Positions 35,725-59,243 of a stretch of 64,000 nucleotides of DNA are shown here, piece after piece; position 1 is the stretch's first letter; each line of letters begins with the position of its first letter. Source of the stretch: Thiomicrospira cyclica (lineage in GTDB: Bacteria; Pseudomonadota; Gammaproteobacteria; Thiomicrospirales; Thiomicrospiraceae); contig DZAT01000002.1 of the NCBI GenBank assembly GCA_022736205.1, positions 19,308-83,307 of the forward strand, given 5' to 3'. Both the position numbers and the translations under genes were made by a program. Under the pieces are notes generated by a model, which was given only the letters and a program-made list of their open reading frames with translations, had not been told where the DNA came from and made no database searches.

Positions 35725-35734
35725 TTCCTAACCC

Positions 35735-36553: not shown

Positions 36554-36592
36554 TTAGCACCCTATTCTGATTTTTTGACGCACGCTAAGAAC

Positions 36593-36605
36593 TATATATA
36601 TATAT
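36593..36605. repeat. (TA)6.5 dinucleotide repeat in the promoter region of the 272-aa gene
   Basis: TATATATATATAT lies about 40 nt upstream of ATG 36553. Confidence 0.6.
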
Positions 36606-36687
36606 GCGACGAGTCAACATTTTTATCCTTTATTTTGCAAATAATTTTAACGATCAATAACAACACAAGATGACAACACCATGAGTC

Positions 36688-37458
36688 TTACTGCAACTGA
36701 TAACGAATCGGCAATGACAGCGTCCACTCGCTTTTATTCAACTCAGGAGGAATCGGCGGGAGTTGACCATTAAGCCCTTGCATAAAGATATCGACGGCAG
36801 CGACATCTAAACTCTGTGATCCACTCGACTCCATAATCACAACATTGCTGATTTTACCCGATGCCAAAATGGTAAAACGTACCAATACCGTTCCCTCTTC
36901 CCCCATGCGTCTTGCTAATATAGGATACTGTTGCAAGGTAGCAATTCGTCCATGCACCATTGCTCGATAAGCCGACGCAATATCTTTGATCGCCGATGCC
37001 GACAAACTGGGGGGCTGTGCTGAAGGCACCGCTTCAACTTGCGTCTGACTGCTTGTAATTGTAGGTGTCATGGCTTCGGGAGGCTGTGGTGCAGTGGGTA
37101 AAGGACGCGTCATTTGTTCTGCAATACTGGCTGGCACACTGGGCTGCGCTTTGGTCGCAACCGCTTTATGCGCCTTACGATCACTGATCGCTTTACGAGG
37201 AGCGGCAGGAACAGGTTGTTTTTGTATGACTTTATCGTGTTTCACAGGAGGCGCTGCCGATAATTCGGGCAAAGAAATCGCTTTTGGCAACACTGGGGCA
37301 GTCGTTATCAGTGTCACCAAAGGCGTAACATCTTTTAGTGGCTCTACTGCTTGAGACCACTGCCAGTTGTGCCACAAGGCAAAAACCACGGCTACATGAA
37401 AGCTCAGTGCCATCAAAAAAGACAGGCTGCTACGCCCAAACACACCTTGATGCTGCAT
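36688..37458 (-). CDS. tonB: Energy transducer TonB
   Basis: 256 aa. N-terminal TM, Pro-rich spacer and a C-terminal TonB_C domain (GTVLVRFTILASGKISNVVIMESSG). It follows exbB-exbD. Confidence 0.75.
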   Translation of the reverse strand: MQHQGVFGRSSLSFLMALSFHVAVVFALWHNWQWSQAVEPLKDVTPLVTLITTAPVLPKAISLPELSAAPPVKHDKVIQKQPVPAAPRKAISDRKAHKAVATKAQPSVPASIAEQMTRPLPTAPQPPEAMTPTITSSQTQVEAVPSAQPPSLSASAIKDIASAYRAMVHGRIATLQQYPILARRMGEEGTVLVRFTILASGKISNVVIMESSGSQSLDVAAVDIFMQGLNGQLPPIPPELNKSEWTLSLPIRYQLQ

Positions 37459-40511: not shown

Positions 40512-40657
40512 AATCACAAACAGCCGCACTCAAAAAGTTGAATAAGTGAACATTATAATGACTTAGGCGTTAACATGCATTTTTGCCTTGCTATTGTCAT
40601 CCAATTGTCACCTCTTCATGAGATAATCATGTGATAAATCGTAAAAGAGAAAACACC

Positions 40658-42760: not shown

Positions 42761-42809
42761 AGGCAGGTAAAGTAGAATGGTATCATCGTACTTTGTAAGA
42801 CTTTAAACC

Positions 42810-44306: not shown

Positions 44307-44359
44307 CATTGCGCTGAAAGAACAGCGCAGCTGCAACGCCAGCGTGCTGTGCTGCTAGT

Positions 44360-45265
44360 TTAGGCTGGCATCTCGTCAGCTAACTCCAGCCAGCCCTCTT
44401 GACTCACCAATAAGCCAACACGTTTTGCCGTCTGTTTAAAGTCATCTGCGGTTAAGCCGATCGCAACCAAACGCAACTGCGTTAACTCGGGCAACACACC
44501 AGGGGTCGATGCACAAATGCCGTTATTAAAACCCAAATAGAAAGTCATGCTTTCGGCTGCAAGCAACACGTCTGCCCAAGGCTGCATGTCTTTAGACAAG
44601 CGTGCGGGAAAATGATGCCCTGCAACGGCCATAACCCACTCTTCAGGAAAATGCCAAGAACGCAATAGAACAGCGCCTGCAATCGCATGATTGACCCCTA
44701 ATTCTTGTTGCTCAATCTGTGCTAAAGCAGTCGGATTGTCTCTGGCTAATAGCGCAACCTCACGATAACGATCAGCGCAACAACTGTCTAACAGAAAAAT
44801 ACCCAAATCATGTGCAAGCCCTAAGGTAAAAGCGGTCGATGTATCTAATTGTCGACCCTGTTTTTGCATCAGCAACACCAATTCACGAGCAGCGACGGCT
44901 GCAACAAAGGCGTTACGCCAAAACTGTCTTGCCGAAAATGTCTGGGGAATTGTCATCATATTCATAAATGCAGCAGCGCAGGCCAACATTCGGGTTGTCG
45001 AAAAGCCCAATCGACGTACCGCCTCCTCTAGCGTTTGTGCGGGTGCATGCATCACATACTTTGCCGAATTGACGGTTTTCATGATCCGCGCAACCACACC
45101 TACGTCTGCTTCGAGTACCGCCGTCACCGAATCGACCGAAACACTGGGGTCTTGCAATGCGGCATCTAATCGAGAAATCACCGATGGAAACATCGGCAAT
45201 GCCTTATGCTCTTCTAGCCAACGATTAAGTAACTGAGCGGTTAATTTAGGTTGACTGTCACTCAT
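44360..45265 (-). CDS. HDOD domain protein
   Basis: About 301 aa from ATG 45265 (MSDSQPKL...). The HDOD pattern is LPMFPSVISRLDAAL, VNSAKY and AVRRLGF. Its ATG overlaps the upstream paralog stop as ATGA. Confidence 0.75.
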   Translation of the reverse strand: MSDSQPKLTAQLLNRWLEEHKALPMFPSVISRLDAALQDPSVSVDSVTAVLEADVGVVARIMKTVNSAKYVMHAPAQTLEEAVRRLGFSTTRMLACAAAFMNMMTIPQTFSARQFWRNAFVAAVAARELVLLMQKQGRQLDTSTAFTLGLAHDLGIFLLDSCCADRYREVALLARDNPTALAQIEQQELGVNHAIAGAVLLRSWHFPEEWVMAVAGHHFPARLSKDMQPWADVLLAAESMTFYLGFNNGICASTPGVLPELTQLRLVAIGLTADDFKQTAKRVGLLVSQEGWLELADEMPA

Positions 45266-46155
45266 TGCACACTGTCCGCCAATTCTAACCAACCTTCTGC
45301 TTGTAAACCATCCGCAACATCAGCCGACAGATCGGTTAATATCGCCCCTGAAATACCATATGCCTCACCACGCGAAAGAACCAAATCGTGCATGGCAGCA
45401 GAAGGCGCATCATAAACCCCATTACCAAATCCCAGAGTAACAGCAATGTATTCGGCAAATAACACCACGTCAGCCAAAGGCTGTAACTCGGGTTGCAACC
45501 TTGCAGGAAAATGATGCGCAGCAACAGCCATCGCCATATAATCAGCAAAGCCCCACTGCTTCAACAAAGCAGCGCCGATAATGGCATGCGTTGTACCCAG
45601 TATTTTCTGTTCCATCATGCTCTGCTCTTCGTTTGCCACCGATGCCAATACCTGTGCAAATTCGTTTGGACTAAACAGATCTAACAAGAGCACGCCGACT
45701 TCGTGCGACAACCCCATCAGAAAAGCCGTTGGCGCATCGCAAACACGCTGCTGTTTGACACGTAAAAACCACCCCGCCAGCTCACGAGCCGCGACTGCGG
45801 AAGCAAATGCATGACGCCAAAAAACGCTCACATTAATATGGGTCGGCTTCATAAAACCAGCCGTGTAAGAAACCGCAAAAGCGACTGCGCGGACTTCGGC
45901 GAATCCCAAGCGCGATACCGCATCCAACAGGTCTTTGGGTGGCTTCATACCATATCGAACCGAACAGGCAGCACGCATAATACGAGAAGCAATCAGCATA
46001 TCCGCCGCAACGATGGTAACCACCTGATCAACGTTCACATTGTCTTGAGCAAGCACCTCGTCCAGCTTCAGGATAACCGCTGGGAAAACAGGCAATGCTT
46101 TACGTTCGTGCAATGAACGCAACACCATACTGCTCGACACTTTTGCACCTTGCAT
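45262..46155 (-). CDS. HDOD domain protein (tandem paralog)
   Basis: 297 aa with the same architecture: LPVFPAVILKLDEVL, AVSRLGF, GLSHEVGVLLLD. Confidence 0.75.
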   Translation of the reverse strand: MQGAKVSSSMVLRSLHERKALPVFPAVILKLDEVLAQDNVNVDQVVTIVAADMLIASRIMRAACSVRYGMKPPKDLLDAVSRLGFAEVRAVAFAVSYTAGFMKPTHINVSVFWRHAFASAVAARELAGWFLRVKQQRVCDAPTAFLMGLSHEVGVLLLDLFSPNEFAQVLASVANEEQSMMEQKILGTTHAIIGAALLKQWGFADYMAMAVAAHHFPARLQPELQPLADVVLFAEYIAVTLGFGNGVYDAPSAAMHDLVLSRGEAYGISGAILTDLSADVADGLQAEGWLELADSVQ

Positions 46156-47128: not shown

Positions 47129-47533
47129 TTACTTTTTCAGTAATACTTTAACGCTCGCATCGACCTTACTCTCATCAATATAACCGACAGCACCAGGTGT
47201 TGTCGCAACGAATAGCTTCACGGCAGCATCGTCTGCAACTTCTTTTGGTGGCGTGCCCTTACCTGTAAAGACCATTTCGGTACGGTAAGCTTTAACTTCA
47301 TCTTCTGTCTGACCCACAACACCTTCATAAAAAGCTTTGCGCGAAGCCGAGCCTTCTTTTTGATCAACAGGTGTTACAACACCGCCAGCTAGTTCTGACT
47401 TTTTACCCATAAACACTTTTTTAATGTCTTTATCGGTAGCGCCATCACCCACACTCGGATTCGCAATCACCGCCACACCCGCTTGAGCAGTGAAAGAAGC
47501 AACCAATAAAGAAAGCAATACGAATTTGTTCAT
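47129..47533 (-). CDS. Small periplasmic PBP-like (PstS-superfamily) domain protein
   Basis: 134 aa. Signal peptide MNKFVLLSLLVASFTAQA. The C-terminal ...TPGAVGYIDESKVDASVKVL resembles phosphate-binding-protein-like domains. Confidence 0.5.
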   Translation of the reverse strand: MNKFVLLSLLVASFTAQAGVAVIANPSVGDGATDKDIKKVFMGKKSELAGGVVTPVDQKEGSASRKAFYEGVVGQTEDEVKAYRTEMVFTGKGTPPKEVADDAAVKLFVATTPGAVGYIDESKVDASVKVLLKK

Positions 47534-47545
47534 TATGGTTACTCC

Positions 47546-48673
47546 TTAAAACATCAGGTTATAGTTAAGACGGTAAACAGCGATATCTTTGCCCGCAATA
47601 GTCGTACCATTATTGAAAAATTCATTCGAGTTATTAGCAGAACCTACGGATACCTGTGAGGCTTCTGCCTTGATATTCGAGTTACCATTCACCGCATAAA
47701 CAACACCTGCTGCTTTAGTAGACTGATCTAAATTAGGTGCCATGCCACCCATCTTAGCCTTGTCTGAACTAATCACAGCGTAAGAAAGATATGGCGTAAA
47801 TGCACCTAACTTATGATCAACCGATAAATAACGACCATCCGTATCAGCGAACATCATGCTGTCCACACGACGTTGTCCATATTCACCTGTGATGGTGGTA
47901 TGACCTAAGCGCAATTGTGCACCCAAAGAAGCAAAGCTTGCGTCAACATTGCTAACCATGCCTGCAATCATGCCACCGAGCACGCTGCTACGCTCATCTT
48001 TATAAGATAGCTTTGTTGCCATGTAGCCAGCTCTTAGGCGTAGAATCTCGTTATAATCAAATAGAACATTTAAACCCCTAACACTATCTGCTTCAAAAGT
48101 CTTAAACATCACATTGCTATCCAACGGATTAATGCCGCGCCCGTCAAAGCGTGTCATCCCTGCATATGGCTGAATCGTTAACTCACCATCTTCGCCAACT
48201 TCAAAACGCTTCAACAAATCAGCACCGACATAACCATTGGTGGGTGCTTGACCATACATTTCTAGTGGCAATTTAGCCAAAATATACGCTTTGCCTACAT
48301 CCAATTGTTCAGACATCATAAACAAGGGTAAACGCAATTTACCCGCTCTAATTTTGGTCGAATCATTCAGCGCGTAAGAGCCAAACAACCATTCGCCTTG
48401 CACCGACATGCGGTCATCATCCGTTGTTGATTGCTTCGCCACAACCTGACCAGTAATGCTGAAGTGTGGGTTAATTTTAACGTCGGCTTGAATACCCGCT
48501 TTCGTATCGTTAATCCATTCTGCATTGTTTTTATCTAAGCCACGATCATACGCCTGCGACGAATCTGTTGACGCTGCGCCAATGGTACCAAAACCAGACA
48601 CCTGACCTTCTAACGCACGCGCTGTTACTGGCAACAAACTGGCAATACACAATGATAATAATATTTTATTCAT
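47546..48673 (-). CDS. Outer-membrane beta-barrel (porin-like) protein
   Basis: 375 aa. It has a signal peptide, an alternating beta-strand pattern and a terminal ...YRLNYNLMF with the C-terminal Phe typical of OMPs. Confidence 0.6.
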   Translation of the reverse strand: MNKILLSLCIASLLPVTARALEGQVSGFGTIGAASTDSSQAYDRGLDKNNAEWINDTKAGIQADVKINPHFSITGQVVAKQSTTDDDRMSVQGEWLFGSYALNDSTKIRAGKLRLPLFMMSEQLDVGKAYILAKLPLEMYGQAPTNGYVGADLLKRFEVGEDGELTIQPYAGMTRFDGRGINPLDSNVMFKTFEADSVRGLNVLFDYNEILRLRAGYMATKLSYKDERSSVLGGMIAGMVSNVDASFASLGAQLRLGHTTITGEYGQRRVDSMMFADTDGRYLSVDHKLGAFTPYLSYAVISSDKAKMGGMAPNLDQSTKAAGVVYAVNGNSNIKAEASQVSVGSANNSNEFFNNGTTIAGKDIAVYRLNYNLMF

Positions 48674-48879: not shown

Positions 48880-50286
48880 CTAGCGAATGGACTCTCCAGC
48901 TGGCTTCGCAAACTGATCGTTGAGTTTTTGAATCGCACGACGCGCCTGATCACGCACATTGGCTAAACGCTTACGCGCACCATTGCCCCAACCACGCGGC
49001 GATTGCGCAAACATCGGACGCCAGAAAACGGTATTGCGAGCCAAGGCACGCGCCAAGTTTCCTGTTTCGTCTTCACGCTGCAACCGACGCATTATAATAC
49101 CTGCCCATAATTGACGGAAATAATAATGCGGCACGAACAAAACAGCCAATACAACACCCGCAACTGTCAATCCTGCAATAGGGTTGTCAATCAAGCCAGA
49201 CAAATCGATGTTGGTAAACAAATAGGTATTGAGCGATAACCACATCAAAAGCACGCTCACGAATGATGCCAAAACAATATCACTAATCGCAACCCGCTTT
49301 GCCCATTGCAAGCGAACATCATCAACTTTAGGTAACCACTCGTTTTCTAACTGATCAGACAAGGTTTCTAAGGCAAAGCTGATGCGATAGGCACGCTCGA
49401 CGCTCACCTTATCCATGCGGTTATAAATTTCTGCTAAGTCGATGTCTTTTTTTCGCTTGAAGCGTTCAGCTAAGGTTTCGTCTTTAATTGCTACAGCTGC
49501 TTTTTCATTGTAAATCATATAAAACTTGCCACCGACTAAGCCGCTCGCCGCTAAAGCACGTTGCCATGCACCCATAATCGCTTCAGGATTGTCTTCGTTA
49601 GCAGCTGTGTCGATTTGATTTAAAATGAACAAAAATTTATCCGCATCATGACGCTGGTGTGTACCTTCTACCAAATGCTTCAGCGTATCACGCATGGCAC
49701 CAGGTTCAGGATGACGCGCATCAAAAAAGACCAATACCAAATCTGACATACCAATAATATGATCAGCAATTTTTAACACCGTATCACGCTGACTGTCTGC
49801 ATCAAAACCGGGTGAGTCGATCAGAATGCGCCCTTTTAAGCTGTTTTCTGGAACAGTCTTGAGTTGCAAGTAGCTATCAATTCGATTGCCTTCACCCTGA
49901 GCGACGCGCTCAATCTCATGACGAATGCCATAAAAAGGAAAGCGCGGGTCAGCATCGAGTGCCAAACCTGGTAAGGTCATCGTTTCGTCGCCACCACCGT
50001 AGCAAATGACGCTGAAGCGATCATCCACTGCTTGATTTCCTGTGTCCTGTACACGACGCCCAACAAACTGATTAATGAAAGACGATTTACCAGCCGAAAA
50101 AGTACCCAATACAGCAATCAGAGGCCACCAAGAAATCTGTTCGACATATGAAGCGTTCGTATCTAATATGCCCAAACCCTGCGCCACCTGATCGAGCTGA
50201 CGATAAGTACCGACAACCTCCAACAAAACAGGATTTTCTTGCACCAAACTTTGCTGCAATTTATGAATACGCTCTTGAATATGCAT
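48880..50286 (-). CDS. Dynamin/EHD-like GTPase with C-terminal membrane hairpin
   Basis: 468 aa. G1 GTFSAGKSSFIN, G3 DSPG, G4 NQID. Two C-terminal hydrophobic segments (ISDIVLASFVSVLLMWLSL, IAGLTVAGVVLAVLFV). Confidence 0.7.
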   Translation of the reverse strand: MHIQERIHKLQQSLVQENPVLLEVVGTYRQLDQVAQGLGILDTNASYVEQISWWPLIAVLGTFSAGKSSFINQFVGRRVQDTGNQAVDDRFSVICYGGGDETMTLPGLALDADPRFPFYGIRHEIERVAQGEGNRIDSYLQLKTVPENSLKGRILIDSPGFDADSQRDTVLKIADHIIGMSDLVLVFFDARHPEPGAMRDTLKHLVEGTHQRHDADKFLFILNQIDTAANEDNPEAIMGAWQRALAASGLVGGKFYMIYNEKAAVAIKDETLAERFKRKKDIDLAEIYNRMDKVSVERAYRISFALETLSDQLENEWLPKVDDVRLQWAKRVAISDIVLASFVSVLLMWLSLNTYLFTNIDLSGLIDNPIAGLTVAGVVLAVLFVPHYYFRQLWAGIIMRRLQREDETGNLARALARNTVFWRPMFAQSPRGWGNGARKRLANVRDQARRAIQKLNDQFAKPAGESIR

Positions 50287-50308
50287 GATAACTCCTATGC
50301 AACCGCAC

Positions 50309-51034
50309 TCATCGCGCTGGCTGTACTACTGCTGGCGGTGTTTGTGCAGGTTGCTGCTGTGGCTGAGCCGTTTGGGGCGCAGGAATACCGTAATAATAAG
50401 GATAAGACGAAGGTGGAACCGCTTGTGGCGGTGGCGGCGGCTCTTTACGACCACCCAACATGCGCCAAGGTGCGACGTTGTTAATGGTGCTCATTGGTCC
50501 TGAAATACTCCGATTCAAATCCCATAAATCCGTGCCCATGCGGCTCGTACTCATCGCCATCTGCGCAACACTGTCATTAATTTTACTCATGCTCTCGTTC
50601 ATATGTAGCATGGTTTCGTTAATCTTCAAAATGTGGTCATCCATCGTAACCACTTCATCCGTCATGATTTTGACTTCTTTTTGGATACCACGAATTTCTT
50701 GCGCAATCACCGTCATGTTGCGATCAACCGTCATTGTCATTTGAGCCATGTTGTTAGACATCATGCCAATATCGTAAGTGAGGTGATAAATTAAATAAAA
50801 GCCGTATCCAGCCAATACAATGAATCCAGCCATCATTGGCAACAACACCTTTTCCCAACGACGCATCGCCGAGCTGATGGTTGTCACTGCCATTGACATT
50901 GTTAAAACCGTATCTTCAAGTAAAAATACTTGCTTTTGCATGTAATGAACATCTGGTTCAGGCATTGCAAACAACGGGGGCGTTGTTTGCTGTCCTTGTT
51001 CAGAGCCAGTTACGCGCGGTTGCGCTTCGGTCAT
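50309..51034 (-). CDS. Single-TM protein with Met-rich coiled-coil repeats and Pro-rich tail
   Basis: 241 aa. TM VLLPMMAGFIVLAGYGFYLIY. Periodic Met-rich helices follow (MSNNMAQMTMTVDRNM...INETMLHMNESMSKINDSVAQM), then a C-terminal PPPPPQAVPPSSYPYYYGIPAPQ. No known family recognised. Confidence 0.45.
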   Translation of the reverse strand: MTEAQPRVTGSEQGQQTTPPLFAMPEPDVHYMQKQVFLLEDTVLTMSMAVTTISSAMRRWEKVLLPMMAGFIVLAGYGFYLIYHLTYDIGMMSNNMAQMTMTVDRNMTVIAQEIRGIQKEVKIMTDEVVTMDDHILKINETMLHMNESMSKINDSVAQMAMSTSRMGTDLWDLNRSISGPMSTINNVAPWRMLGGRKEPPPPPQAVPPSSYPYYYGIPAPQTAQPQQQPAQTPPAVVQPAR

Positions 51035-51053
51035 AGTGGTTTTTCTCGCTCAA

Positions 51054-51911
51054 TTAATTGTTTTGAGGATACATGGTCGCACGCAGGTTCATCATCGCTT
51101 TTTGACCCATATCAGGATTAATTTGCATCAAAAACCCTAACACATATTGAGCCTGTAAAAAACGACCTTGTGCGCTTAACCCTTCAACAGCTGCTGCATA
51201 TTCAATGGCAGCATCTTGCCAGTTTTGTTGCGCAAAATACACATTACCCAACTCACCATGTAAATCTGGATCATTCGTGCGGGTTAATTCTGCCTGATAA
51301 GCCTGCTTTGCCACATCCAAATTACCCTCGTAAAGTGCTGTACGCGCAATTTCGAGGTTCGTTTGAGCTGGCATCATCTGTGCTGGCTGGTAAACGGGCT
51401 GAGGCATCGTTTCTGACTGCTGCATTGGCGCCACTGTTGCTGGCACGTCCATTGGTGCCTGATAAGGCATCATGGGTGGCATAGACGGCATCTGCGGCAG
51501 ATTCATCGGCGCTTGATGAGCAACCATAGGAGGTGGCATCTGCGGTTCTGGCATGGGCATCATACCTTGATAAGGCATCATGGGTGGCATATCAGATTGG
51601 CTGTATGCAGGCGGTTGTGTTTCGAAAGCAGGCTCGACCTGAATAGGCTCTTGCGCTATGACGGCAGGCGTGGCTGCAACAACCGTTTCGCTAACAACTT
51701 GTGGCTCTGGTGCAGCAGCAAGCGGTGTTTGCACAGCAACAGGTGACGACACAACTGCAGGCATTTCTGCCACTGCGGGGGATGACTCATTCACAGCATC
51801 AAGACCATGATCACGCTTAATGGTATCAGAGTAAACCAAATACAGCGTTGCTGCTGCGAGGAGAATAATCATGAACACACCACTATTAAGCAGCGCACGT
51901 AAAAAACGCAT
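51054..51911 (-). CDS. Membrane-anchored Pro/Met/Gln-rich protein with C-terminal TPR-like repeats
   Basis: 285 aa. N-terminal anchor VFMIILLAAATLYLVY, a low-complexity middle (MPPMMPYQGMMPMPEPQMPPPM...) and C-terminal TPR-like helices (YEGNLDVAKQAYQAEL..., GNVYFAQQNWQDAAIEY). Confidence 0.5.
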   Translation of the reverse strand: MRFLRALLNSGVFMIILLAAATLYLVYSDTIKRDHGLDAVNESSPAVAEMPAVVSSPVAVQTPLAAAPEPQVVSETVVAATPAVIAQEPIQVEPAFETQPPAYSQSDMPPMMPYQGMMPMPEPQMPPPMVAHQAPMNLPQMPSMPPMMPYQAPMDVPATVAPMQQSETMPQPVYQPAQMMPAQTNLEIARTALYEGNLDVAKQAYQAELTRTNDPDLHGELGNVYFAQQNWQDAAIEYAAAVEGLSAQGRFLQAQYVLGFLMQINPDMGQKAMMNLRATMYPQNN

Positions 51912-51922
51912 CTTCGTTCTCC

Positions 51923-52549
51923 TTATACATATTGCGGATAAAGTAGGGCCGCAAGGGTAAGTACCTCTTGCGCGGCCTTATCATATGCATTTAATTCAAA
52001 CACAGCCAATCCTTCGCTAAATGAGCGACGGTAAGCTGTTCGTTGATATAAACGAACAGGAAGACGTTTAACGCCTTTTAGCATATCTAATGCCTCTTCA
52101 GCTTCCTGTGTTTCAACAACCATATGATGGGTATCAGCACGATTGATAAAAGCAAAGATTTTTTTATCACCCACTTCTGTTTCAATCATGCTTAAAAATT
52201 TTTGCGTTGACCAGATGTCAGCTTGGCTAGGCGCACAAGGTATAACAACACGATCGGCACGCTTAATCGCAGCCAACATAGCAGCTTTGTCAGCAATACT
52301 GACATCAATTACCACTTCTGCGCTGGGTTTTTTGGCGAGGCTTTCCAGTGCAATAAGGTCACCAGCTGAAGACAAACAAGGTTCGTAACCTTCTTCTAAA
52401 CGTACATCGAGCACATCTTTGAATGTATTTTGCGGATCGAGATCAAACAAAGCTGTTTTTTTGCCTTGTTTTGCCAACCAAACCGCCAAATTAAACGCTA
52501 CGGTGCTTTTTCCTGTTCCGCCTTTTAGATTACCAACGACGGTGATCAT
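51923..52549 (-). CDS. ParA/MinD-family P-loop ATPase (short, about 208 aa)
   Basis: ATG 52549 follows an AAGGAAG SD and gives MITVVGNLKGGTGKSTVAFNLAVWLAKQGKKTALFDLDPQ, a deviant Walker A with the signature Lys. The track start at 52597 is 16 codons upstream. Confidence 0.8.
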   Translation of the reverse strand: MITVVGNLKGGTGKSTVAFNLAVWLAKQGKKTALFDLDPQNTFKDVLDVRLEEGYEPCLSSAGDLIALESLAKKPSAEVVIDVSIADKAAMLAAIKRADRVVIPCAPSQADIWSTQKFLSMIETEVGDKKIFAFINRADTHHMVVETQEAEEALDMLKGVKRLPVRLYQRTAYRRSFSEGLAVFELNAYDKAAQEVLTLAALLYPQYV

Positions 52550-52621
52550 AATAACTTCCTTGCAATGGGGTACTCCACTATGACACAAGTGTGCCATAGC
52601 GAAGTACCGCCCGAACCTAAG

Positions 52622-53176
52622 TTACTGCTTAGCTGGTGCTTGAGCAGGTGCTTGTGGCATCATCATGCCTGGTGCTGGCATTGGGTATGGCATTGGCGCG
52701 CCCATCTGTGGCGCAGCTGGTGCACCATATGGCGCTGGACCGTAGTAAGGACCGTAGTAAGGAGCGTTAGCGCCATTACCGTAACCCTGACCATTGAAGC
52801 CATTGTAACCATTACCATAACCTTGGCCTTGACCGTAGCCATTACCGTTACCTTGCGTATAACCGTTGCCGTTGCCGTTGCCGTTCCAGTTTTGCTGATT
52901 CTGCGCACGACCTTTACCTTTCATGTTGAAAGACATGCCGCCATCAAACTCACCATCACCTTCGCCTTTGCCTTCACCACGGCCTTCACCGCGACCTTCA
53001 CCGCGACCTTCACCACGTGAATCGCCACGACCGTAGCCGTTACCATTGCTGTAGCCATTGCCGTTACCATTTTGATAGCCGTTACCAGCGTTATCCCATG
53101 GTGCTGCGAAAGCACTTGCTTGTACAGAAAGACCCAAACCAGCTGCAATTGCTAAAGTTAATGTCATTTTATTCAT
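52622..53176 (-). CDS. Secreted Gly/Asn/Tyr-rich low-complexity protein with (RGEG)n block and Pro/Met-rich tail
   Basis: ATG 53176 follows an AGGAG SD. Signal peptide MNKMTLTLAIAAGLGLSVQASAFA. The mature part reads NGNGNGYSNGNGYGRGDSRGEGRGEGRGEGRGEGKGEGDGE...NGNGNGNGYTQGNGNGYGQGQGYGNGYNGFNGQGYG...PYYGPYYGPAPYGAPAAPQMGAPMPYPMPAPGMMMPQ. Confidence 0.55.
   Translation of the reverse strand: MNKMTLTLAIAAGLGLSVQASAFAAPWDNAGNGYQNGNGNGYSNGNGYGRGDSRGEGRGEGRGEGRGEGKGEGDGEFDGGMSFNMKGKGRAQNQQNWNGNGNGNGYTQGNGNGYGQGQGYGNGYNGFNGQGYGNGANAPYYGPYYGPAPYGAPAAPQMGAPMPYPMPAPGMMMPQAPAQAPAKQ
52863..52885. repeat. (CCGTTG)3.8 hexanucleotide tandem repeat inside the Gly/Asn-rich CDS
   Basis: The sequence is CCGTTGCCGTTGCCGTTGCCGTT. 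It encodes NGNGNGNG on the minus strand. Confidence 0.8.
52959..53018. repeat. Five tandem 12-nt units (CCTTCACCRCGR-like) inside the same CDS
   Basis: The units are CCTTCGCCTTTG, CCTTCACCACGG, CCTTCACCGCGA, CCTTCACCGCGA and CCTTCACCACGT. They encode (R/K)GEG x5 on the minus strand. Confidence 0.8.
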
Positions 53177-53279
53177 ATATGAAACTCCTATTATCGTCAA
53201 ATTTAAACACTCTTGGTCAATTAGGGAATACGCAAGCCAAGAGACATCCTCACGTTTCCCATTCTTAATAGATTACCGC

Positions 53280-53795
53280 TTAGTATCCAAAACCAAACGG
53301 CATCCCGCTAAAACCATTCCCACCGGGGAAAGGCATCATATTCCCAAAGCCACCATTGGGGAAGCTACCCGAATTGAAAGGCATACTGCCATAATTAGGC
53401 ATCATACTTGGCATCGAAGGGACTGTTACAGTCGGTACTGAAAAGCTCGGTAGTGACGTGGGAAATCCCTGCGGCATTCCTTGTGGCATTTGAGGCATAA
53501 AGCCAGAAGGCGCATTAGGAAAACCTTGCGGCTGTGATGGCGCGGGGCGATAACCCATTTGCGGCTGCGTATATTGCGGCGCTGGCATCATGGCTGGCAC
53601 CGCTAACGCCCCTCCCTGAACAGGATACGTATATGTACTAACAGCTGCGGGTTCTACCATGCGTCGACTCTGTGTCGCCGCTTTAGAATCATAAAACGTT
53701 TCTGACTGCGGCCAAACAAGTACTTGTGCAGGCTCTGACCATGCGGTTAAAGGCGACAGTGCTAACATCCAAAATGCGAAAAGAGATGGTTTCAT
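53280..53795 (-). CDS. Secreted Met/Pro/Gly/Phe-rich low-complexity protein
   Basis: ATG 53795 lies 1 nt after the RND stop. Signal peptide MKPSLFAFWMLALSPLTAWS. The mature part includes ...GFMPQMPQGMPQGFPTSLPSF...PSMPSMMPNYGSMPFNSGSFPNGGFGNMMPFPGGNGFSGMPFGFGY. The track start at 53825 is 10 codons upstream. Confidence 0.5.
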   Translation of the reverse strand: MKPSLFAFWMLALSPLTAWSEPAQVLVWPQSETFYDSKAATQSRRMVEPAAVSTYTYPVQGGALAVPAMMPAPQYTQPQMGYRPAPSQPQGFPNAPSGFMPQMPQGMPQGFPTSLPSFSVPTVTVPSMPSMMPNYGSMPFNSGSFPNGGFGNMMPFPGGNGFSGMPFGFGY

Positions 53796-53796
53796 A

Positions 53797-56700
53797 TCAT
53801 TCTTGTCCTTTAATTCTAATACCACGACGGGGGCGCTTCGACAGATTTTTAGGCGCTTCTGTCACTGACGGTGGAACAACAGCTCGCTCCGCTTTCGCTT
53901 TCGCTACGGTATCGACGACAGTACTAGCCTGTGTTGCTACCTTTACAGTACGCGCATTTCTCTTTGGCTGTATTGGCTTTTCTAGCGATTGCTCTGCCGT
54001 CTTAGCCTGAGTCACAGCGGCATCTGTTGTTGCGAAAGCAGGCTCGGGTATTGGTTGAGACACAATGGGTGCCACAACAACAACGTTTGGCGTGCCCATT
54101 TCTTCTGGCAGGACAACAGATGCTTTTATTTCTGTCGATGCGCCTGCCTGCGACTGCGCTTCAAGTGGCTTAACGACATCGGCGGGCATCGGTGTTGGTT
54201 CTGCAGCATGAGATTCGGTTAGCTCGACACGTGCTGGCTCTGCCATCACAACATGCACTTCCAAAGGCGTAACCAGATGATCTGTTGTCGCTTTTTCTTG
54301 TTCTACACTCACCAGTTCTATTTCATGGCGCTGATAATATGCGGGCGCGGGCGTAGAGACAAGTTCATTTTCAATCTTGTCCGTTGGCTTCGAAACCTTG
54401 CTAAACACATCAGCAGGAGCCACGGTAAGGGGTTGCAGTGCGTGAACAGGATGAACGTGAATGTCACCTGCATGCGCAGGACTTTCTAACTTAACATCAA
54501 GTGAACCAGAACAACCTGCAGCAGGTGGGTTGGTCATACCCTGATTCATGGTCGAACACATCGCAGCACGGGCACTCACACAACCCAATGGAATCACAAT
54601 CAGTGTCAACATCGTCGACACAATGACCCCAAACATTAAGGACACAGCCATACCTTGGAAAATTGGATCGAACAAAATAACGCTCGAACCTAGCACCAGC
54701 GCCGCCCCTGTAATTAGGATAGGACGTGTTCGTGCTTGACACGAATAAATCACCGCATCAACGATGGGCACGCCCTTAGCGATTTCTTGTCGCGCAAAAT
54801 CAACCAACAGTAGTGAGTTGCGAACAATAATCCCTGCCAAGGCAATAAAGCCGATCATCGAGGTTGCGGTAAACTCAGCACCAATAATCCAATGTCCAGG
54901 AATAATACCAATAAGCGTTAACGGAATCGGTGCCATCACAATGACAGGAACCATAAAGTTCTTAAATTCCCAAACAACCAGCATATAAATAAGTACCAAG
55001 GCAACACCGAATGCCAATCCCATATCTCGGAAAGTTTCGTAGGTTACTGTCCACTCACCACCCCATTCAAACCCTGAGCGGTAAGTATCGACAGGCACAC
55101 CTGCGTAACTGCCTTTAACCGTAACGCCATCAGGAGACACATAGTCTTCCAAAAAGTCGCTTACTTGCAACATACCATAGATTGGTGCGCCCAAACGACC
55201 TGTTGTATTGGCAATCACGTACTCTAGTGGCTGCAAATCTTTGTGATAAATCACCTGTTGTTGCGTATCTTTAATAAAGTGCCCTAGCTCTGCCAAAGGA
55301 ACCGTACCACCCATTTGCGAGGGAACGGGAATCTGACCTAAACGAGCGAACTCGGTGCGATAAGCTTGAGGCACTTGTAAAACAATATAAACCGCCTCAC
55401 GAACTAACCCTTGCTTGGCATCCCCAACACGGAAATTACCCATTGCCATTGCTAAGGTTTTGTTAATCACATCAATTGAAATACCGCGACGAACCGCCTT
55501 ACTAACATCGACTTCAAAGCGCCAAATGTCATATGGGGACTGCAGTAAGTTATCCACATCTGTGATGTTGTCCGATTTTTTGAAAATCGCGGTCAAGTCT
55601 TCGGCTACTTTGCGACGCGTATCGGCATCTGGTCCATAGACCTCAGCAACCACCGCTTGTAACACAGGAGGCCCAGGAGGCGCTTCAACAATTTGAATAC
55701 GAGCACCCGCACGATCCGCTAAAGGTTGCAATAAAGGACGCACCGCTTCGGCAATTTCATGACTGGGTCGCAGACGGTCTTTTTTACCCAGCAAGTGAAC
55801 CTGAATATCTGCTTGCCAAGGCTCATCGCGCAAATAATAATGACGCACCAGCCCATTGAAATCGAAGGGCGCGGCTGTACCAACATAAGTTTCCATCGAA
55901 GTGATTTCTGGTACTTGACGCAACGCTTGCACAATCTCTTCTGTCAGGCTTGCCGTCACGGGTAAGGCAGTTCCCTCTGGAAAGTTAACCACCACAGAAA
56001 AATCTGATTTGTTGTCGAAAGGCAGTAATTTAACGGTTACTGCCGTTGAAACCAACAGTAAAACAGAAACAAAAAAAGCAACCAGAATAACCCCTAAAAA
56101 CATCCATCCTTTTGCTTTATCTAAAATTAAGCTACCCAACAGTCTACGGAAAAAACGCTCAATCTTTTCTGATTGTTTATGTTCCTTAATGGCATCTTTT
56201 TGAAGCTGCTCCATTGATGGCTTAATACGTGCCGCCAACCAAGGGGTAAAGGCAAAGGCAGCAAATAACGAAAACGCCATCGCAGCAGAACCTAAAGAGG
56301 GGATGGGTTCCATATAAGGACCCATCATGCCCGACACGAACGCCATCGGCATCAGTGCAGCGATCACCGCCAAGGTAGCCACAATCGTAGGGTTGCCAAC
56401 TTCGGCGGTCGCATCAATCGAAATTTCATCACGTGTCGAGCCATCAATCAACCAGCGTCGATAGATGTTTTCAAGAACAACAACCGCATCGTCAACCAAA
56501 ATACCGATCGAGAAAATCAGTGCAAACAGTGACACACGATCAATGGTGTAATCACCCAGCCAAGCAATAAAGACAGTGACCAAAATAACAACAGGAATCA
56601 CGATAGCCACAACCAAAGCAGGGCGCCAGCCCAAGAAGAACCAGACCAATAACGTGACTGCGCCCGTGGCAATAAACAACTTAAAGATTAACTCGTTAAC

Positions 56701-57801
56701 CTTAGCATTAGCAGACTTACCATAGTCACGTGAAATGGTCACGCTCACATTATCAGGAATCAGTCGACCTTTGAGCTGTTGTAACTTATCGAGTGCTGCA
56801 TTAGCAACAGAAACACCATTCGTGCCGTGCTTCTTAGCAATCGCGACCGTAACAGAAGGAATACCTTCTGACAGTGGCTTGCCTTCCGCATCAAACAAAG
56901 GATAATGCATCACCATATCAGCAATATCTTTATCGCCTTCTGTCACCAAAGCGACATCTCGTACATAAATGGGTGCGCCATCATGCACTGCAACCATCAG
57001 ATTCGCGACATCTCGCGAAGAACGCAAAAAAGAACCTGTATAAACGTTGAAGGATTTATTCCAACCTTCAATTTTACCTAAATCCGTTTCAGAGTTAGCC
57101 GCTTCAATGGTACGCCCGAGCTGATCAAGCGTTACGCCATAACCAGAAAGACGTTCGGGTAACACTTCTACTTTAACCTGACGCGACTGCCCACCCACAA
57201 CAAAACCCTGCGACACACCATCGTTAATCGATAGTTCTTGTAGCACATCTTGACCGAGTAAGCGTAACTCACTGCCAGTTAAGTCTTTTGATGACAAGGT
57301 AAACGTGATGACAGGAACATCGTCAACGCTTTTAGGCTTAACAATCGGCTCCATTGTACCGGGCGGTACAACATCGCGATGCGAACTCAGCTTATCGTAG
57401 ACCTTAACCAAGGACTCTTCTAACGGTTCGCCCACATTGAACTGCACAGCAACCAACGCTTGTCCACGTCTGGCAACAGAATAAACATGATCGACACCAG
57501 GAATTTCGTGCAACGCACGCTCTAGCGGCTGTGCAACCAAAGCATTCGCTTGCTCTGCTGACGAACCTGGATAAGCGACCATAATGTCGACAAGCGGAAC
57601 AGAAATTTGAGGATCTTCTTGTCGTGGTGTTAGCATCAAGCCGACAATACCAACAAACAAACTCAACAATAACAACAGTGGCGTAATGGGTGACCGAATA
57701 AAAGATCTTGCCGTCTTGCCTGCCAACCCTTGATCGTCAAAGGATTCTGCCGATTTTCCGAGCAAGTCTTGTAATGATTTATCTTCTACGTGTGCGCTCA
57801 T
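53797..57801 (-). CDS. AcrB-type RND efflux permease with about 280-aa disordered C-terminal extension
   Basis: 1334 aa with 12-TM RND topology. The TM4 motif is SIGILVDDAVVVLENIYRR. The last ~280 residues (A/V/P/T/E-rich, ending KRPRRGIRIKGQE) have no counterpart in standard ~1040-aa RND pumps. Confidence 0.85.
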   Translation of the reverse strand: MSAHVEDKSLQDLLGKSAESFDDQGLAGKTARSFIRSPITPLLLLLSLFVGIVGLMLTPRQEDPQISVPLVDIMVAYPGSSAEQANALVAQPLERALHEIPGVDHVYSVARRGQALVAVQFNVGEPLEESLVKVYDKLSSHRDVVPPGTMEPIVKPKSVDDVPVITFTLSSKDLTGSELRLLGQDVLQELSINDGVSQGFVVGGQSRQVKVEVLPERLSGYGVTLDQLGRTIEAANSETDLGKIEGWNKSFNVYTGSFLRSSRDVANLMVAVHDGAPIYVRDVALVTEGDKDIADMVMHYPLFDAEGKPLSEGIPSVTVAIAKKHGTNGVSVANAALDKLQQLKGRLIPDNVSVTISRDYGKSANAKVNELIFKLFIATGAVTLLVWFFLGWRPALVVAIVIPVVILVTVFIAWLGDYTIDRVSLFALIFSIGILVDDAVVVLENIYRRWLIDGSTRDEISIDATAEVGNPTIVATLAVIAALMPMAFVSGMMGPYMEPIPSLGSAAMAFSLFAAFAFTPWLAARIKPSMEQLQKDAIKEHKQSEKIERFFRRLLGSLILDKAKGWMFLGVILVAFFVSVLLLVSTAVTVKLLPFDNKSDFSVVVNFPEGTALPVTASLTEEIVQALRQVPEITSMETYVGTAAPFDFNGLVRHYYLRDEPWQADIQVHLLGKKDRLRPSHEIAEAVRPLLQPLADRAGARIQIVEAPPGPPVLQAVVAEVYGPDADTRRKVAEDLTAIFKKSDNITDVDNLLQSPYDIWRFEVDVSKAVRRGISIDVINKTLAMAMGNFRVGDAKQGLVREAVYIVLQVPQAYRTEFARLGQIPVPSQMGGTVPLAELGHFIKDTQQQVIYHKDLQPLEYVIANTTGRLGAPIYGMLQVSDFLEDYVSPDGVTVKGSYAGVPVDTYRSGFEWGGEWTVTYETFRDMGLAFGVALVLIYMLVVWEFKNFMVPVIVMAPIPLTLIGIIPGHWIIGAEFTATSMIGFIALAGIIVRNSLLLVDFARQEIAKGVPIVDAVIYSCQARTRPILITGAALVLGSSVILFDPIFQGMAVSLMFGVIVSTMLTLIVIPLGCVSARAAMCSTMNQGMTNPPAAGCSGSLDVKLESPAHAGDIHVHPVHALQPLTVAPADVFSKVSKPTDKIENELVSTPAPAYYQRHEIELVSVEQEKATTDHLVTPLEVHVVMAEPARVELTESHAAEPTPMPADVVKPLEAQSQAGASTEIKASVVLPEEMGTPNVVVVAPIVSQPIPEPAFATTDAAVTQAKTAEQSLEKPIQPKRNARTVKVATQASTVVDTVAKAKAERAVVPPSVTEAPKNLSKRPRRGIRIKGQE

Positions 57802-57819
57802 AATCTTATATTCACTTTT

Positions 57820-58959
57820 TTAATGAGGAATGACATCGTCGCCACGCACAACCCAACCAGAGGCTGCTGCTTTGGGAGGTTGCGTTAGGATACGCTCACC
57901 TTCTTTTACACCAGACAACACCATAATACGATCATTACCCACATCACGACCCAAACGCACAACTCGCATTTCTAACGTATCTTGACTGTTGACCACATAG
58001 ACACTAGGCAAACTACCTCTTTTGACGATGGCACTCTTAGGTAATACAGGCATTACCTCGCGCATATCCATCGCATTAGGAACCATTACCTCGGCATACA
58101 TACCAGGACCAGCACTCACACCAACAGGCAAATCAAACTTAACTTTAACCGTGTGCTGCTGCGCATCAGCAACAGGGTAAACCTGAGCGACGCGTGCCTG
58201 TGTATCGCCAACTTGATCAAGGTGCGCACGAACCACATCGCCACGCTCCATTTTACCCATCAGGCGCACAGGAACGTTAACCTCAATGCACAAATGACCA
58301 CTCTGAGCATATTTAACCAATGGCTGACCTGGCGAGACAGTATCACCCGCTTCAACCATTTTCTTAATAATCAAACCAGAAAAAGGCGCTTGAGAGCGTG
58401 CATCACGGATTTTAGTATCTAAGGCTTCCAGCGATGCTTGCGCACTCATCACATCAGCATTGGCTTGCTGCACACCCGAATTACGGCTGTACAAGTCGGC
58501 TTGACGCGTCACCCGATCATCTTCGTAGCCCATAATGCGTCCCATAGGACGAGAAAAGGTTTGATCAAACATGCCTGGCATAGCAAACCCAGGTGCTTTG
58601 CTAACACTGCGACTCTGCGGACTCCATAATTCACGTTGATATTCTGTTTGGGCATTTGCCAAGCCTGCTTGCGTTTTATTAATACCTGCAACCAGCGCAC
58701 GACGTTGCGCTTGCAAATCACCATCTTCTATGGCAACCAGCAATTCACCTGCGTTGAAACGATCCCCTTCAATCCCACCTAAATAATTAACACGTCCAGG
58801 AACTTGAGCTGTTAGAACCACCTCACGATAAGGAACAACTGTGCCGCCCAAAACAACATATGCATCATATGATTCAATTTTGACTGACTCAATGGCTGCT
58901 GTTGCCATTTGTGCTGACAACGACAAACTTGCAGCGACCAACAGTGTTAACAGGTGCAT
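57820..58959 (-). CDS. RND efflux periplasmic adaptor (MFP/HlyD-like)
   Basis: 379 aa. It has a signal peptide, the lipoyl/barrel-sandwich motifs VPGRVNYL and FSGLIIKKMVEAGDTVSPGQPL, and a coiled-coil hairpin. Confidence 0.85.
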   Translation of the reverse strand: MHLLTLLVAASLSLSAQMATAAIESVKIESYDAYVVLGGTVVPYREVVLTAQVPGRVNYLGGIEGDRFNAGELLVAIEDGDLQAQRRALVAGINKTQAGLANAQTEYQRELWSPQSRSVSKAPGFAMPGMFDQTFSRPMGRIMGYEDDRVTRQADLYSRNSGVQQANADVMSAQASLEALDTKIRDARSQAPFSGLIIKKMVEAGDTVSPGQPLVKYAQSGHLCIEVNVPVRLMGKMERGDVVRAHLDQVGDTQARVAQVYPVADAQQHTVKVKFDLPVGVSAGPGMYAEVMVPNAMDMREVMPVLPKSAIVKRGSLPSVYVVNSQDTLEMRVVRLGRDVGNDRIMVLSGVKEGERILTQPPKAAASGWVVRGDDVIPH

Positions 58960-59243
58960 TCTATTTTCTCCTTTGCTTACCCTTTAGTTTTAGCGCCATG
59001 CTAGACAATAAAGGGAACTGTAATTTAATACTATATTAGCGATACTCGTACAAAACGCATACCTAAATATTTTTATTGCGCTATAAGCACGATCAAAAGC
59101 AAGTCAAAAACAGAGAAAAAAATAGTCAAATCATAAACAATAAAATGGCAATAGCTAACAGATTCAAAACACTAAAACATAAAACATGCGCAAAAATAGC
59201 ACTAGGTACAATTAAAGACTGACATCAAATTAATTGATTTAGC

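Follow-up and report, generated by a model that had tools for sequence, protein, structure and literature searches.

The DNA analysed here is a 64,000-nucleotide stretch of contig DZAT01000002.1 of Thiomicrospira cyclica (hereafter the window), and our subject is a cluster of eight minus-strand genes located at 48880-58959 within it. Read from its upstream end, the cluster encodes a membrane-fusion protein (MFP) adaptor, a permease of the resistance-nodulation-division (RND) superfamily, two secreted low-complexity proteins (LC1 and LC2), a small ParA/MinD-type ATPase, an N-terminally membrane-anchored protein (hereafter the anchored protein), a coiled-coil (CC) protein with a single transmembrane (TM) span and a dynamin-like protein (DLP). 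We found that these genes are kept together in dozens of independent genomes and that, among the loci sampled, they occur almost only in lineages of sulfur oxidisers, with genes of the sulfur-globule protein family SGP inside the cluster in some of them. The cluster may thus serve the deposition of zero-valent sulfur. Its features are as follows, with protein lengths in amino acids (aa).

58960-59243, minus strand: AT-rich upstream spacer of 284 bp between the hemF stop and the MFP start, presumed promoter and leader; GC 30.6% vs 47% in the cluster
57820-58959, minus strand: MFP, periplasmic membrane-fusion adaptor, 379 aa, with an N-terminal signal sequence; HlyD_D23 2e-15, TIGR01730 RND_mfp 149 bits (cut-off 94.9)
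54571-57801, minus strand: RND permease core, residues 1 to ~1077; ACR_tran 488 bits, residues 32-1072
53797-54570, minus strand: cytoplasmic disordered tail of the RND permease, ~255 aa, stop codon included; Ala/Val/Pro/Glu-rich (A14 V13 P11 E9)
53809-53829, minus strand: RRGIRIK, terminal peptide of the RND tail (residues 1325-1331); a candidate for docking or for ATPase stimulation
53280-53795, minus strand: LC1, secreted Pro/Ser/Gly/Met/Phe-rich protein, 171 aa, with a signal-peptide-like N-terminus; P17 S11 G11 M9 F8 (%)
52622-53176, minus strand: LC2, 184 aa, secreted, rich in Gly/Asn/Tyr and containing an (RGEG)n block; G26 N12 A11 P8 Y8 (%), with GRGDSRGEGRGEGRGEGRGEGKGEG
51923-52549, minus strand: small ParA/MinD ATPase, 208 aa when read from the ATG at 52549; the open reading frame (ORF) is longer and begins at 52597
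51054-51911, minus strand: N-terminally anchored Ala/Pro/Gln/Met-rich protein with a weak C-terminal tetratricopeptide repeat (TPR) region, 285 aa; TM residues 8-26
50309-51034, minus strand: CC protein, single-TM Met-rich coiled coil with a Pro-rich tail, 241 aa; TM 64-82, 10% Met, EPPPPPQ tail
48880-50286, minus strand: DLP, dynamin-superfamily EHD-like NTPase with a C-terminal TM hairpin, 468 aa; Dynamin_N 62 bits
48806-48850, minus strand: intrinsic terminator (hairpin and T-tract) at the end of the cluster; dG -21.4 kcal/mol, z = -5.4

An earlier reading of the DNA (the original prediction) had described eight genes with gaps of 1-103 nt, a 284-bp AT-rich leader and a downstream hairpin followed by a T-tract. 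The ORF list of the window agrees with it in coordinates and in gap lengths, which from the MFP gene onward are 18, 1, 103, 72, 11, 19 and 22 nt. The length and GC content of the leader were likewise verified, and none of 200 shuffled sequences folded as stably as the terminator hairpin. Start codons for LC1 (ATG at 53795), LC2 (ATG at 53176) and ParA were chosen from ribosome-binding sites and orthologue lengths. A generic consensus scan for promoters and terminators found no promoter with confidence in the spacer and no excess of sites inside the cluster; it also overlooked the true terminator on account of its long stem. Searches of the 64 kb with Rfam (gathering threshold) and ARAGORN returned zero matches. 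With its short gaps, AT-rich leader and strong terminator, the layout is operon-like, and the gaps of 11-22 nt that separate the ParA, anchored-protein, CC and DLP genes suggest co-translation. Pfam and NCBIfam searches bore out the domain identities that had been called by eye for the MFP, the RND permease, ParA and the dynamin.

Conservation of the cluster and its carriers

Relatives of the DLP are numerous, with more than 5000 among the 90%-identity sequence clusters of public data, and the first named ones (52-57% identity) belong to Thiomicrorhabdus, Thiosulfativibrio and Thiosulfatimonas. A scan of one genome per species gave at least 545 contigs with a DLP relative, from which the 80 most query-like were taken. 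We then mapped the eight proteins of the window onto each locus of a census of 82, eight of which were too short to judge, leaving 74 informative loci. The arrangements observed were these.

27 loci: full colinear cluster
9 loci: full cluster with the DLP gene divergent from the MFP gene (Sedimenticolaceae-type)
6 loci: RND and DLP genes, with the ParA position outside the fetched DNA
13 loci: partial clusters on short contigs
19 loci: DLP gene alone
8 loci: too short for judgement

Adjacency of the RND and DLP genes was thus found in 42 loci, 36 of which also have ParA (27 colinear and 9 with a divergent DLP gene), and MFP orthologues adjoin the RND gene in every full locus. Together with the 13 partial contigs, linkage of cluster genes extends to 55 of the 74 informative loci, with varied flanks, so that the conservation of gene neighbourhood that the original prediction had looked for does exist. 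In the complete genome of Thiosulfativibrio zosterae the order is MFP, RND (1274 aa), a 169-aa protein, a 179-aa protein, ParA, a 454-aa protein, a 220-aa protein and DLP. The order in locus L002, an 88-kb metagenome contig whose DLP is 75% identical to that of the window, is the same as in the window, and there the flanks match as well (hemF upstream; M48 peptidase, HDOD, ppx and ppk genes downstream). Flanks are otherwise unrelated between loci: the only families to recur among 97 flanking ORFs are GGDEF, HDOD and NrtR/NUDIX, with 5-6 occurrences each, and no recurrent partner gene was seen. Across 29 clusters the pairwise identities of MFP, RND, ParA and DLP covary (r = 0.84-0.92), which indicates that the four proteins are inherited together. 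The arrangement therefore exceeds what chance would produce, as it recurs in dozens of independent genomes between unrelated flanks.

Among the named carriers of the cluster are Thiomicrorhabdus, Thiosulfativibrio, Thiosulfatimonas, Thiothrix, Cocleimonas and Thiotrichales; Sedimenticola, Sedimenticolaceae, Ca. Thiodiazotropha, Ca. Vondammii and the symbionts of Solemya and Bathyaustriella; and Ectothiorhodospiraceae, Thiohalomonadaceae, Chromatiaceae and Chromatiales. Stand-alone DLP genes were found in records named Campylobacterales, Helicobacteraceae and Hydrogenimonas. These taxa are known as sulfur oxidisers, and nearly all records named below class level belong to such lineages. The exceptions are single metagenome-assembled genomes (MAGs) labelled Competibacteraceae, Methylococcales, Rhodobacteraceae, Leucothrix and Francisella. 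The last of these, CAMCGI010000016.1 (locus L004), is titled as a MAG of Francisella tularensis subsp. holarctica; its cluster is 86% (DLP) to 91% (ParA) identical to that of the window, and the label is almost certainly wrong.

Two groups of solitary DLP genes have neighbourhoods of their own. In seven loci from Campylobacterales, Helicobacteraceae and Hydrogenimonas (L020, L024, L027, L028, L048, L065 and L081) the DLP is 49-54% identical to that of the window, which equals the identity seen in Gammaproteobacteria of other orders and suggests either strong constraint or transfer between phyla. Several of these have the lone DLP gene between an upstream gene for a membrane-anchored protein of 644-647 aa and a downstream 603-aa ORF that looks htpG-like. 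The second group comprises eight loci of Thiotrichales-like MAGs (L023, L025, L026, L046, L053, L060, L070 and L076), in which a conserved secreted protein of ~310-370 aa is encoded directly upstream of the DLP, with two small c-type-cytochrome-like ORFs nearby and, judged by look only, mreBCD- and gatCAB-like genes downstream. This secreted protein and its neighbours may form an alternative set of partners for the dynamin.

Properties of the encoded proteins

The interval between the RND and ParA genes (hereafter the slot) holds one to five ORFs per locus, whose products have signal-peptide-like or lipoprotein-like N-termini and extreme composition. Three kinds of slot protein can be told apart: a Pro/Met/Asn/Gln-rich kind with aromatic motifs at its end, a Gly/Asn/Tyr/Ala-rich kind with an APAAPA.K end, and a kind of ~250 aa, found in many loci, that is related to DUF4412 and LolA-like proteins. 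A Pfam scan of 79 slot proteins gave seven matches to SGP (PF17228; best E 2.6e-12), eight to DUF4412 and two to LolA_like. Four slot genes exceed the Pfam cut-off for SGP of 26.7 bits, with 47.8 (L035), 39.4 (L066), 39.2 (L061) and 32.9 bits (L079). When we built a profile from these four proteins and a fifth that scores 22.8 bits, LC2 was the sole ORF of the window to match it (E = 4e-8, 30 bits, with a bias term of 69 bits). LC2 and the SGP-type proteins follow a common plan, which consists of a signal peptide, (W/F)xGPW, Gly/Asn/Tyr repeats, a central motif, Gly/Tyr repeats, APYYGPY and an APAAPA.K end; the central motif, GDG(D/E)FDG..FNM(S/K)G.GRG across the alignment, reads GDGEFDGGMSFNMKGKG in LC2. 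We consider LC2 a divergent SGP relative, whose homology, judged from the profile and the shared motif, is real, if distant, and goes beyond composition. The resemblance of the Gly/Tyr-rich protein to sulfur-globule envelope proteins, noticed in the original prediction from composition, is strengthened accordingly by the four slot genes, the profile and the motif.

LC1 had no match in Pfam and NCBIfam searches. Its relatives in the same slot of L001, L002, L004, L006 and L019 begin with WPQ(P)E(S/T)F and have an aromatic C-terminus. The window lacks the ~250-aa secreted protein with a (Q/E)FSA(N/D/T)AV start that is frequent elsewhere between the RND and ParA genes (L007, L009, L010, L013-L015, L017, L021, L040, L059, L061, L067, L068, L074 and others). 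This DUF4412/LolA-like protein could be a periplasmic carrier of hydrophobic cargo.

The RND permease is a member of its superfamily, as it matches ACR_tran with 488.5 bits over positions 3-1015 of the 1021 of the model, and the closest solved structures to its core are 6vej (1e-66) and then MdtB. Its TM4 (GILVDDAVVVLEN) has an Asp-Asp pair, which we take, from knowledge of AcrB and CusA, to be a proton relay of the drug/amphiphile type. The named multidrug subfamilies of NCBIfam (RND_permease_1/2, MdtB, MdtC and AcrB) do not include it, the best being RND_permease_2 with 447.5 bits vs the required 1250 and every equivalog model staying far under its threshold, and the heavy-metal CusA/CzcA model TIGR00914 gives even less, at 256 bits vs a cut-off of 701. 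No outer-membrane factor of the OEP family was found among the called genes of L001 and L002, the eight genes of the window or the slot ORFs of 36 loci, a result that covers the clusters only and leaves room for a TolC encoded elsewhere. The family match ends at residue 1072 of 1334, and the tail beyond it matches no family. The disordered tail claimed in the original prediction is therefore present, with a length of ~255 aa instead of ~280. At 1158-1436 aa, RND orthologues also have long and variable tails (200-350 aa) of non-conserved sequence, and yet in 31 of 34 the tail closes with (R/K)RGI(R/Q/K)LK and, after it, a few residues that are mostly acidic. Such a basic peptide, conserved and held on a flexible tether, is what a docking site would be expected to look like, which makes it a candidate for one, with ParA as the putative partner.

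ParA has the deviant Walker A sequence KGGTGKST and belongs to the ParA/MinD (SIMIBI) group, with Pfam scores of 58.2 (CbiA, cut-off 25.4), 48.5 (MipZ, cut-off 20.7) and 46.4 (AAA_31, cut-off 27). It falls outside the NCBIfam family NF041546 ParA_partition, with 131.9 bits and a cut-off of 180. Among solved structures it comes nearest to ParF of TP228 (2e-10) and ParA 5u1g, and orthologues measure 206-217 aa. ParF is driven by a flexible, Arg-bearing tail of its partner. Among the Pfam families of the window and the genes of T. zosterae and L002, we found no gene for a ParB, a ParG or a helix-turn-helix protein in the cluster.

The ORF that follows ParA has a TM anchor beginning within its first ~10 residues in nearly all loci, often with a basic residue and then W/A/N and L/I, a loose pattern that fits 27 of 39; with such an anchor, the bulk of the anchored protein is probably periplasmic. 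The original prediction had called it a membrane-anchored Pro/Met/Gln-rich TPR protein. Anchor and composition hold, and the TPR assignment is weak, with all scores below the Pfam cut-offs (TPR_16 28.2 vs 32.7, TPR_2 23.3 vs 27, TPR_19 17.8 vs 25); tblastn found the C-terminal region in only ~12 loci. The CC protein shows heptad autocorrelation of 0.28 at lag 7 and 0.36 at lag 14, and its single-sequence AlphaFold2 (AF2) model is one helix over residues 29-184. The consensus of its family runs from a cytoplasmic juxtamembrane kRWE through the TM segment (YGFYLIY) and a Met-rich coil to MQrDmw.lN.nIS.P..Mn.FmPW and a Pro-rich tail. Judged by its 269 matches at E <= 1e-3 among 1.84 billion representative proteins, CC is a small, specific family without annotation.

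The DLP belongs to the dynamin superfamily by its Dynamin_N score of 62.4 bits (cut-off 27) and by its G domain followed by a helical domain, and its C-terminal hydrophobic segments lie at 332-350 and 370-388. A profile search of Protein Data Bank sequences placed EHD4 first (3.7e-5), with EHD2 likewise among the best matches. The AF2 model, of fair confidence (predicted local distance difference test 78, predicted template modelling score 0.71), shows a G domain and a long helix at 270-353. A Foldseek search with this model also put EHD4 on top (5mtv, 1.6e-9), then EHD2, Cj-DLP1/2, BDLP, IniA and mitofusins, and the best 36 matches are all structures of the dynamin superfamily. The EHD-like call of the original prediction thus agrees with both sequence profile and fold. 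Among 63 family members the invariant motifs are G1 GTFSAGKS, G3 DSPG and G4 NQ.D (NQID here, with N223, Q224 and D226). Since G4 departs from the canonical (N/T)KxD, the preferred nucleotide may be GTP or, as in EHDs, ATP.

Possible role in sulfur deposition

We propose that the cluster is a conserved, self-contained trans-envelope system of sulfur-oxidising Proteobacteria that acts on zero-valent sulfur, in the biogenesis or organisation of sulfur globules, and we give this reading a probability of about 0.5. The proteins would be distributed over three layers. The periplasm would hold the adaptor, the secreted low-complexity or Sgp-type proteins and, probably, most of each of the two anchored proteins; the pump, the two anchors and the dynamin hairpin would lie in the inner membrane; and the pump tail, ParA, the G domain of the dynamin and the conserved N-terminus of CC would face the cytoplasm. 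For the substrate of the pump, for all contacts between the proteins and for the tie to sulfur deposition, we infer the following scheme. Powered by the proton gradient and having no dedicated outer-membrane channel, the MFP/RND pair would take sulfur in a hydrophobic form, or some other hydrophobic component of the globules, out of the inner membrane into the periplasm. The Sec-secreted proteins, which are Sgp-type Gly/Tyr-rich, Pro/Met-rich and, elsewhere, of the LolA-like DUF4412 kind, would coat and stabilise the sulfur phase there, and the two membrane-anchored proteins may tether the deposited material to the inner membrane. ParA could space or localise the assemblies by binding the basic end peptide of the flexible pump tail, much as partner proteins drive ParF, ParA and McdA through basic peptides. 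The hairpin-anchored, EHD-like dynamin might shape or repair the inner membrane around the deposits. A stricter version, to which we subscribe only tentatively and which we think is rather unlikely to hold in every part, has the RND pump feed zero-valent sulfur to an Sgp-coated periplasmic or extracellular deposit that ParA spaces through the tail peptide, with the dynamin moulding the membrane; it would make the cluster the first genetic module for sulfur-globule biogenesis. If true, a ParA system based on the nucleoid would place an inclusion that lies outside the cytoplasm. The original prediction put forward the wider notion that the genes form a machine for building or positioning some structure associated with the envelope; this notion is well motivated, and we keep it as a suggestion.

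Two published observations fit a role in sulfur deposition. In Allochromatium vinosum, sgpD, whose product is localised to the globules, adjoins a gene for an exporter of hydrophobes or amphiphiles (PMC10386293), and in Azospira suillum an operon of RND, MFP and sulfide:quinone oxidoreductase (SQR) genes is strongly induced by H2S (PMC5358917). Several others weigh against it. Deletion of the RND/SQR operon of Azospira left the rate of H2S oxidation unchanged (PMC5358917), and SUP05 bacteria store sulfur globules and are reported to be without dynamins (PMC6509183), which means that the system is not universally required. The sox, dsr, sqr and fcc genes are neither adjacent to the cluster in the window nor recurrent in the 97 ORFs that flank other clusters. 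No sox, dsr or sqr family is among those listed for the 47 other large ORFs of the window (one survey listed 25 of 55 matched families), which include cbb3 oxidase, his, aro, ppk/ppx and spoT genes, and the link to sulfur consequently does not rest on neighbourhood. Against the Pfam model of SGP, LC2 itself scores only 17.1-17.4 bits (E ~0.01), under the threshold, and its better score in our profile is of the kind that low-complexity bias inflates. The slot of some loci, including those of Cocleimonas and the Leucothrix-labelled MAG, lacks an Sgp-like gene. In the 19 DLP-alone loci, among them all those of Campylobacterales, the remainder of the cluster is missing within 6-10 kb. Finally, the sample of loci leans toward the query, being the best 80 of at least 545, so that it gives a biased picture of how far the cluster is confined to sulfur oxidisers.

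The absence of adjacent sulfur genes and the solitary DLP genes would also suit a general envelope-maintenance or stress system, in which the pump rids the cell of hydrophobic toxicants, the dynamin mends the inner membrane or sheds vesicles from it, the low-complexity proteins form a protective periplasmic matrix and the taxon pattern reflects shared habitat and ancestry. The great differences of the slot proteins among lineages speak for such a system, as does the RND core, which is of the drug/amphiphile type by the DD of its TM4 and has TriC-like and MdtB pumps as its nearest relatives. DynA and IniA are examples of dynamins that repair or vesiculate the inner membrane, and bacterial DLPs in general have established parts in repairing membranes and releasing vesicles (PMC10240201). 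This explanation, which we judge unlikely but a serious contender, leaves the SGP-family genes inside the cluster unaccounted for, together with the retention of ParA and of the conserved peptide on the pump tail; moreover, all taxa named below class level in two homologue searches are sulfur-oxidiser lineages, with few exceptions among the fetched loci. It is improbable that the Gly/Tyr/Asn- and Pro-rich proteins instead build a structural matrix outside the cell or in the periplasm (an adhesive, a sheath, a holdfast or a biofilm layer) to which ParA gives a polar or spaced placement. BcsQ, which places cellulose synthase, offers an analogy, and ParA shows a partial BcsQ match (TIGR03371, 5.9e-12); the secreted proteins resemble structural, keratin-like or cell-wall-like proteins, which is the published view of Sgps, and filamentous or attached bacteria are among the carriers (Thiothrix, Cocleimonas and the Leucothrix-labelled MAG). 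However, the cluster is carried too by the non-filamentous, non-sheathed Thiomicrorhabdus and Thiosulfativibrio and by intracellular symbionts, an RND pump would be superfluous for the export of slot proteins that have Sec signals, and the SGP matches point toward globule envelopes.

The Met content of 9-10% in LC1, the anchored protein and the CC protein, with conserved Met positions in the CC family, raises the question of copper or silver (soft-metal) handling; Cu(I) would then be captured by Met-rich proteins in the periplasm and exported through a Cus-like MFP/RND pair. The MFP matches the CusB/HlyD barrel-sandwich model and, weakly, the CzcB family. The pump, however, is not of the metal type, as it favours multidrug over CusA/CzcA models (447 vs 256 bits) and has a TM4 DD of the drug/amphiphile type, and no CusF, CopA or metal-sensor gene was seen in any of the clusters covered (T. 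zosterae, L002 and the slot ORFs). The Met-richness of the secreted proteins is specific to the lineage, being replaced by P/R/G/Y-richness in others, and ParA, the DLP and the SGP proteins would go unexplained. We rejected copper handling as the principal explanation on the grounds of pump type and lineage-specific Met-richness, and it retains very little probability. An equally slight chance belongs to the view that two or three unrelated modules (pump with secreted proteins, ParA with anchored proteins, and the DLP) became neighbours by accident. The DLP gene is indeed divergent in Sedimenticolaceae-type loci and alone in 19, and sgpD of A. vinosum was reported as a transcription unit of its own (PMC10386293). 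Accident would not explain why adjacency is kept at 42-56% protein identity amid differing flanks and outlasts the inversion of the DLP gene, nor does it suit the gaps of 11-22 nt, suggestive of co-translation, from ParA through the DLP in the window. Positioning of carboxysomes, polyphosphate or magnetosomes was a further candidate, which we dropped: the ppk/ppx block is common to the window and L002, absent from T. zosterae and not recurrent in the flanks, and no carboxysome or magnetosome genes were seen near the clusters examined.

Surroundings, known systems and significance

Several other features of the window deserve mention. Its SpoT is ~60% identical to the SpoT proteins of Thiomicrorhabdus, Thiomicrospira, Hydrogenovibrio and Thiosulfativibrio. 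Between the terminator and the M48 peptidase gene, 47129-48673 (minus strand) encodes a secreted protein of 134 aa and another of 375 aa with a C-terminal Phe, neither with a Pfam match; the latter looks like an outer-membrane beta-barrel. Both genes are missing from the otherwise syntenic L002 and so look like a lineage-specific insertion. The block at 40631-46155, which also follows the cluster in L002, consists of polyphosphate kinase and exopolyphosphatase genes and then two tandem HDOD genes; HDOD genes make up 5 of the 97 ORFs that flank other clusters. The lowest GC content of the window (32-38%) is found at 34000-37000, where the ORFs 34828-35724 and 35735-36553 have no Pfam match, and this is probably an inserted island, since the TonB and SSF genes on either side of it adjoin in L002. 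An NgoPII-type restriction endonuclease gene (21924-22769, 268 bits) lies beside aroB in a patch of 37-39% GC (~21000-23000), and family searches made on the window identified no methylase for it. At ~13900-20800 (estimated coordinates) there is a cbb3 oxidase set with assembly genes (COX1, FixO, Cytochrome_CBB3, FixG_C, FixH and E1-E2 ATPase by Pfam, among the first 25 large ORFs), which fits a microaerophilic lifestyle.

The systems nearest to the cluster each share a part of it. Like SgpA, SgpB and SgpC of A. vinosum (PF17228), LC2 is Sec-secreted, small and Gly/Tyr-rich, with the same architecture and central motif; it differs from them by its (RGEG)n insert, its Asn-rich repeats and its score of 17 bits vs 26.7. 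The sgp genes of A. vinosum have been described as separate single-gene units and not in a cluster with pump, ParA and dynamin genes. The sgpD locus of that species (Alvin_2515) resembles ours in having a globule-localised secreted protein encoded beside an RND-type exporter (PMC10386293), and we found no other published Sgp-RND linkage in the searchable literature. It differs, in a comparison made by description only, in that sgpD is reported to be its own transcription unit with a sulfide-unresponsive following gene, and ParA and dynamin go unmentioned (PMC10386293). A homologue search seeded with the DLP of a Chromatiaceae-labelled MAG returned proteins of Sedimenticola, Thiodiazotropha and symbionts, with no Allochromatium. 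In Azospira suillum, Dsui_3440-3443 (an unknown protein, an RND pump, SQR and an MFP) also tie an RND/MFP pair to a sulfide oxidation that yields sulfur globules; compared by description and not by sequence, this operon has SQR and lacks Sgp, ParA and dynamin genes (PMC5358917).

With the tripartite RND pumps (AcrAB-TolC, MexAB-OprM, MdtABC and TriABC) the cluster shares an MFP and a 12-TM RND permease with a TM4 Asp-Asp relay, whereas the clusters examined have no outer-membrane factor gene and their pumps carry a disordered tail of 200-350 aa with a basic end peptide. The DLP has the dynamin-type G domain and the ensuing long helical domain of EHDs and of bacterial DLPs (BDLP, DynA, LeoA, IniA and Campylobacter DLP1/2), but at 468 aa it is much shorter than most of the latter, and its C-terminal TM hairpin is more like that of mitofusin or atlastin. 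In PADLOC, the LeoABC and "Dynamins" models gave only a weak, partial match to LeoA (28.9 bits, residues 152-234), with no partner of LeoB or LeoC type, and no other defence model was hit; a role in defence was rejected for this reason. ParF-ParG of TP228, ParA-ParB, McdA-McdB of carboxysomes and BcsQ all resemble the pair formed here by a small deviant-Walker-A ATPase and a candidate partner with an Arg/Lys-rich end peptide. By contrast, the candidate partner in our case is an integral-membrane RND pump, whose contact with ParA we suppose, and not a DNA-binding or cargo-coat protein, and no ParB, ParG or McdB homologue is present.

Each protein of the cluster is thus of a known superfamily, and it is as a system, with a proposed function, that their combination appears to be new. 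The original prediction could not name a described system of this composition, nor did Pfam, NCBIfam, PADLOC or the literature provide one; full-text literature searches, whose coverage leaves out most subscription papers, found no description of the combination. Irrespective of sulfur, an RND pump with a long disordered cytoplasmic tail and a conserved end peptide is unusual, as are a ParA encoded with an envelope-spanning pump and a compact family of hairpin-anchored, EHD-like dynamins with more than 5000 sequence clusters. Few bacterial inclusions are as conspicuous as sulfur globules, which are also a major intermediate in global sulfur cycling. To our knowledge, only their envelope proteins SgpA-D are known, and how insoluble sulfur is delivered and how the number, size and place of globules are controlled are open questions. 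The cluster would be the first candidate machinery for depositing and organising elemental sulfur. It may provide concrete genes with which to test how globules are built and placed, in cultured carriers such as Thiosulfativibrio zosterae, Thiomicrorhabdus species, Cocleimonas flava and Sedimenticola hydrogenitrophicus.

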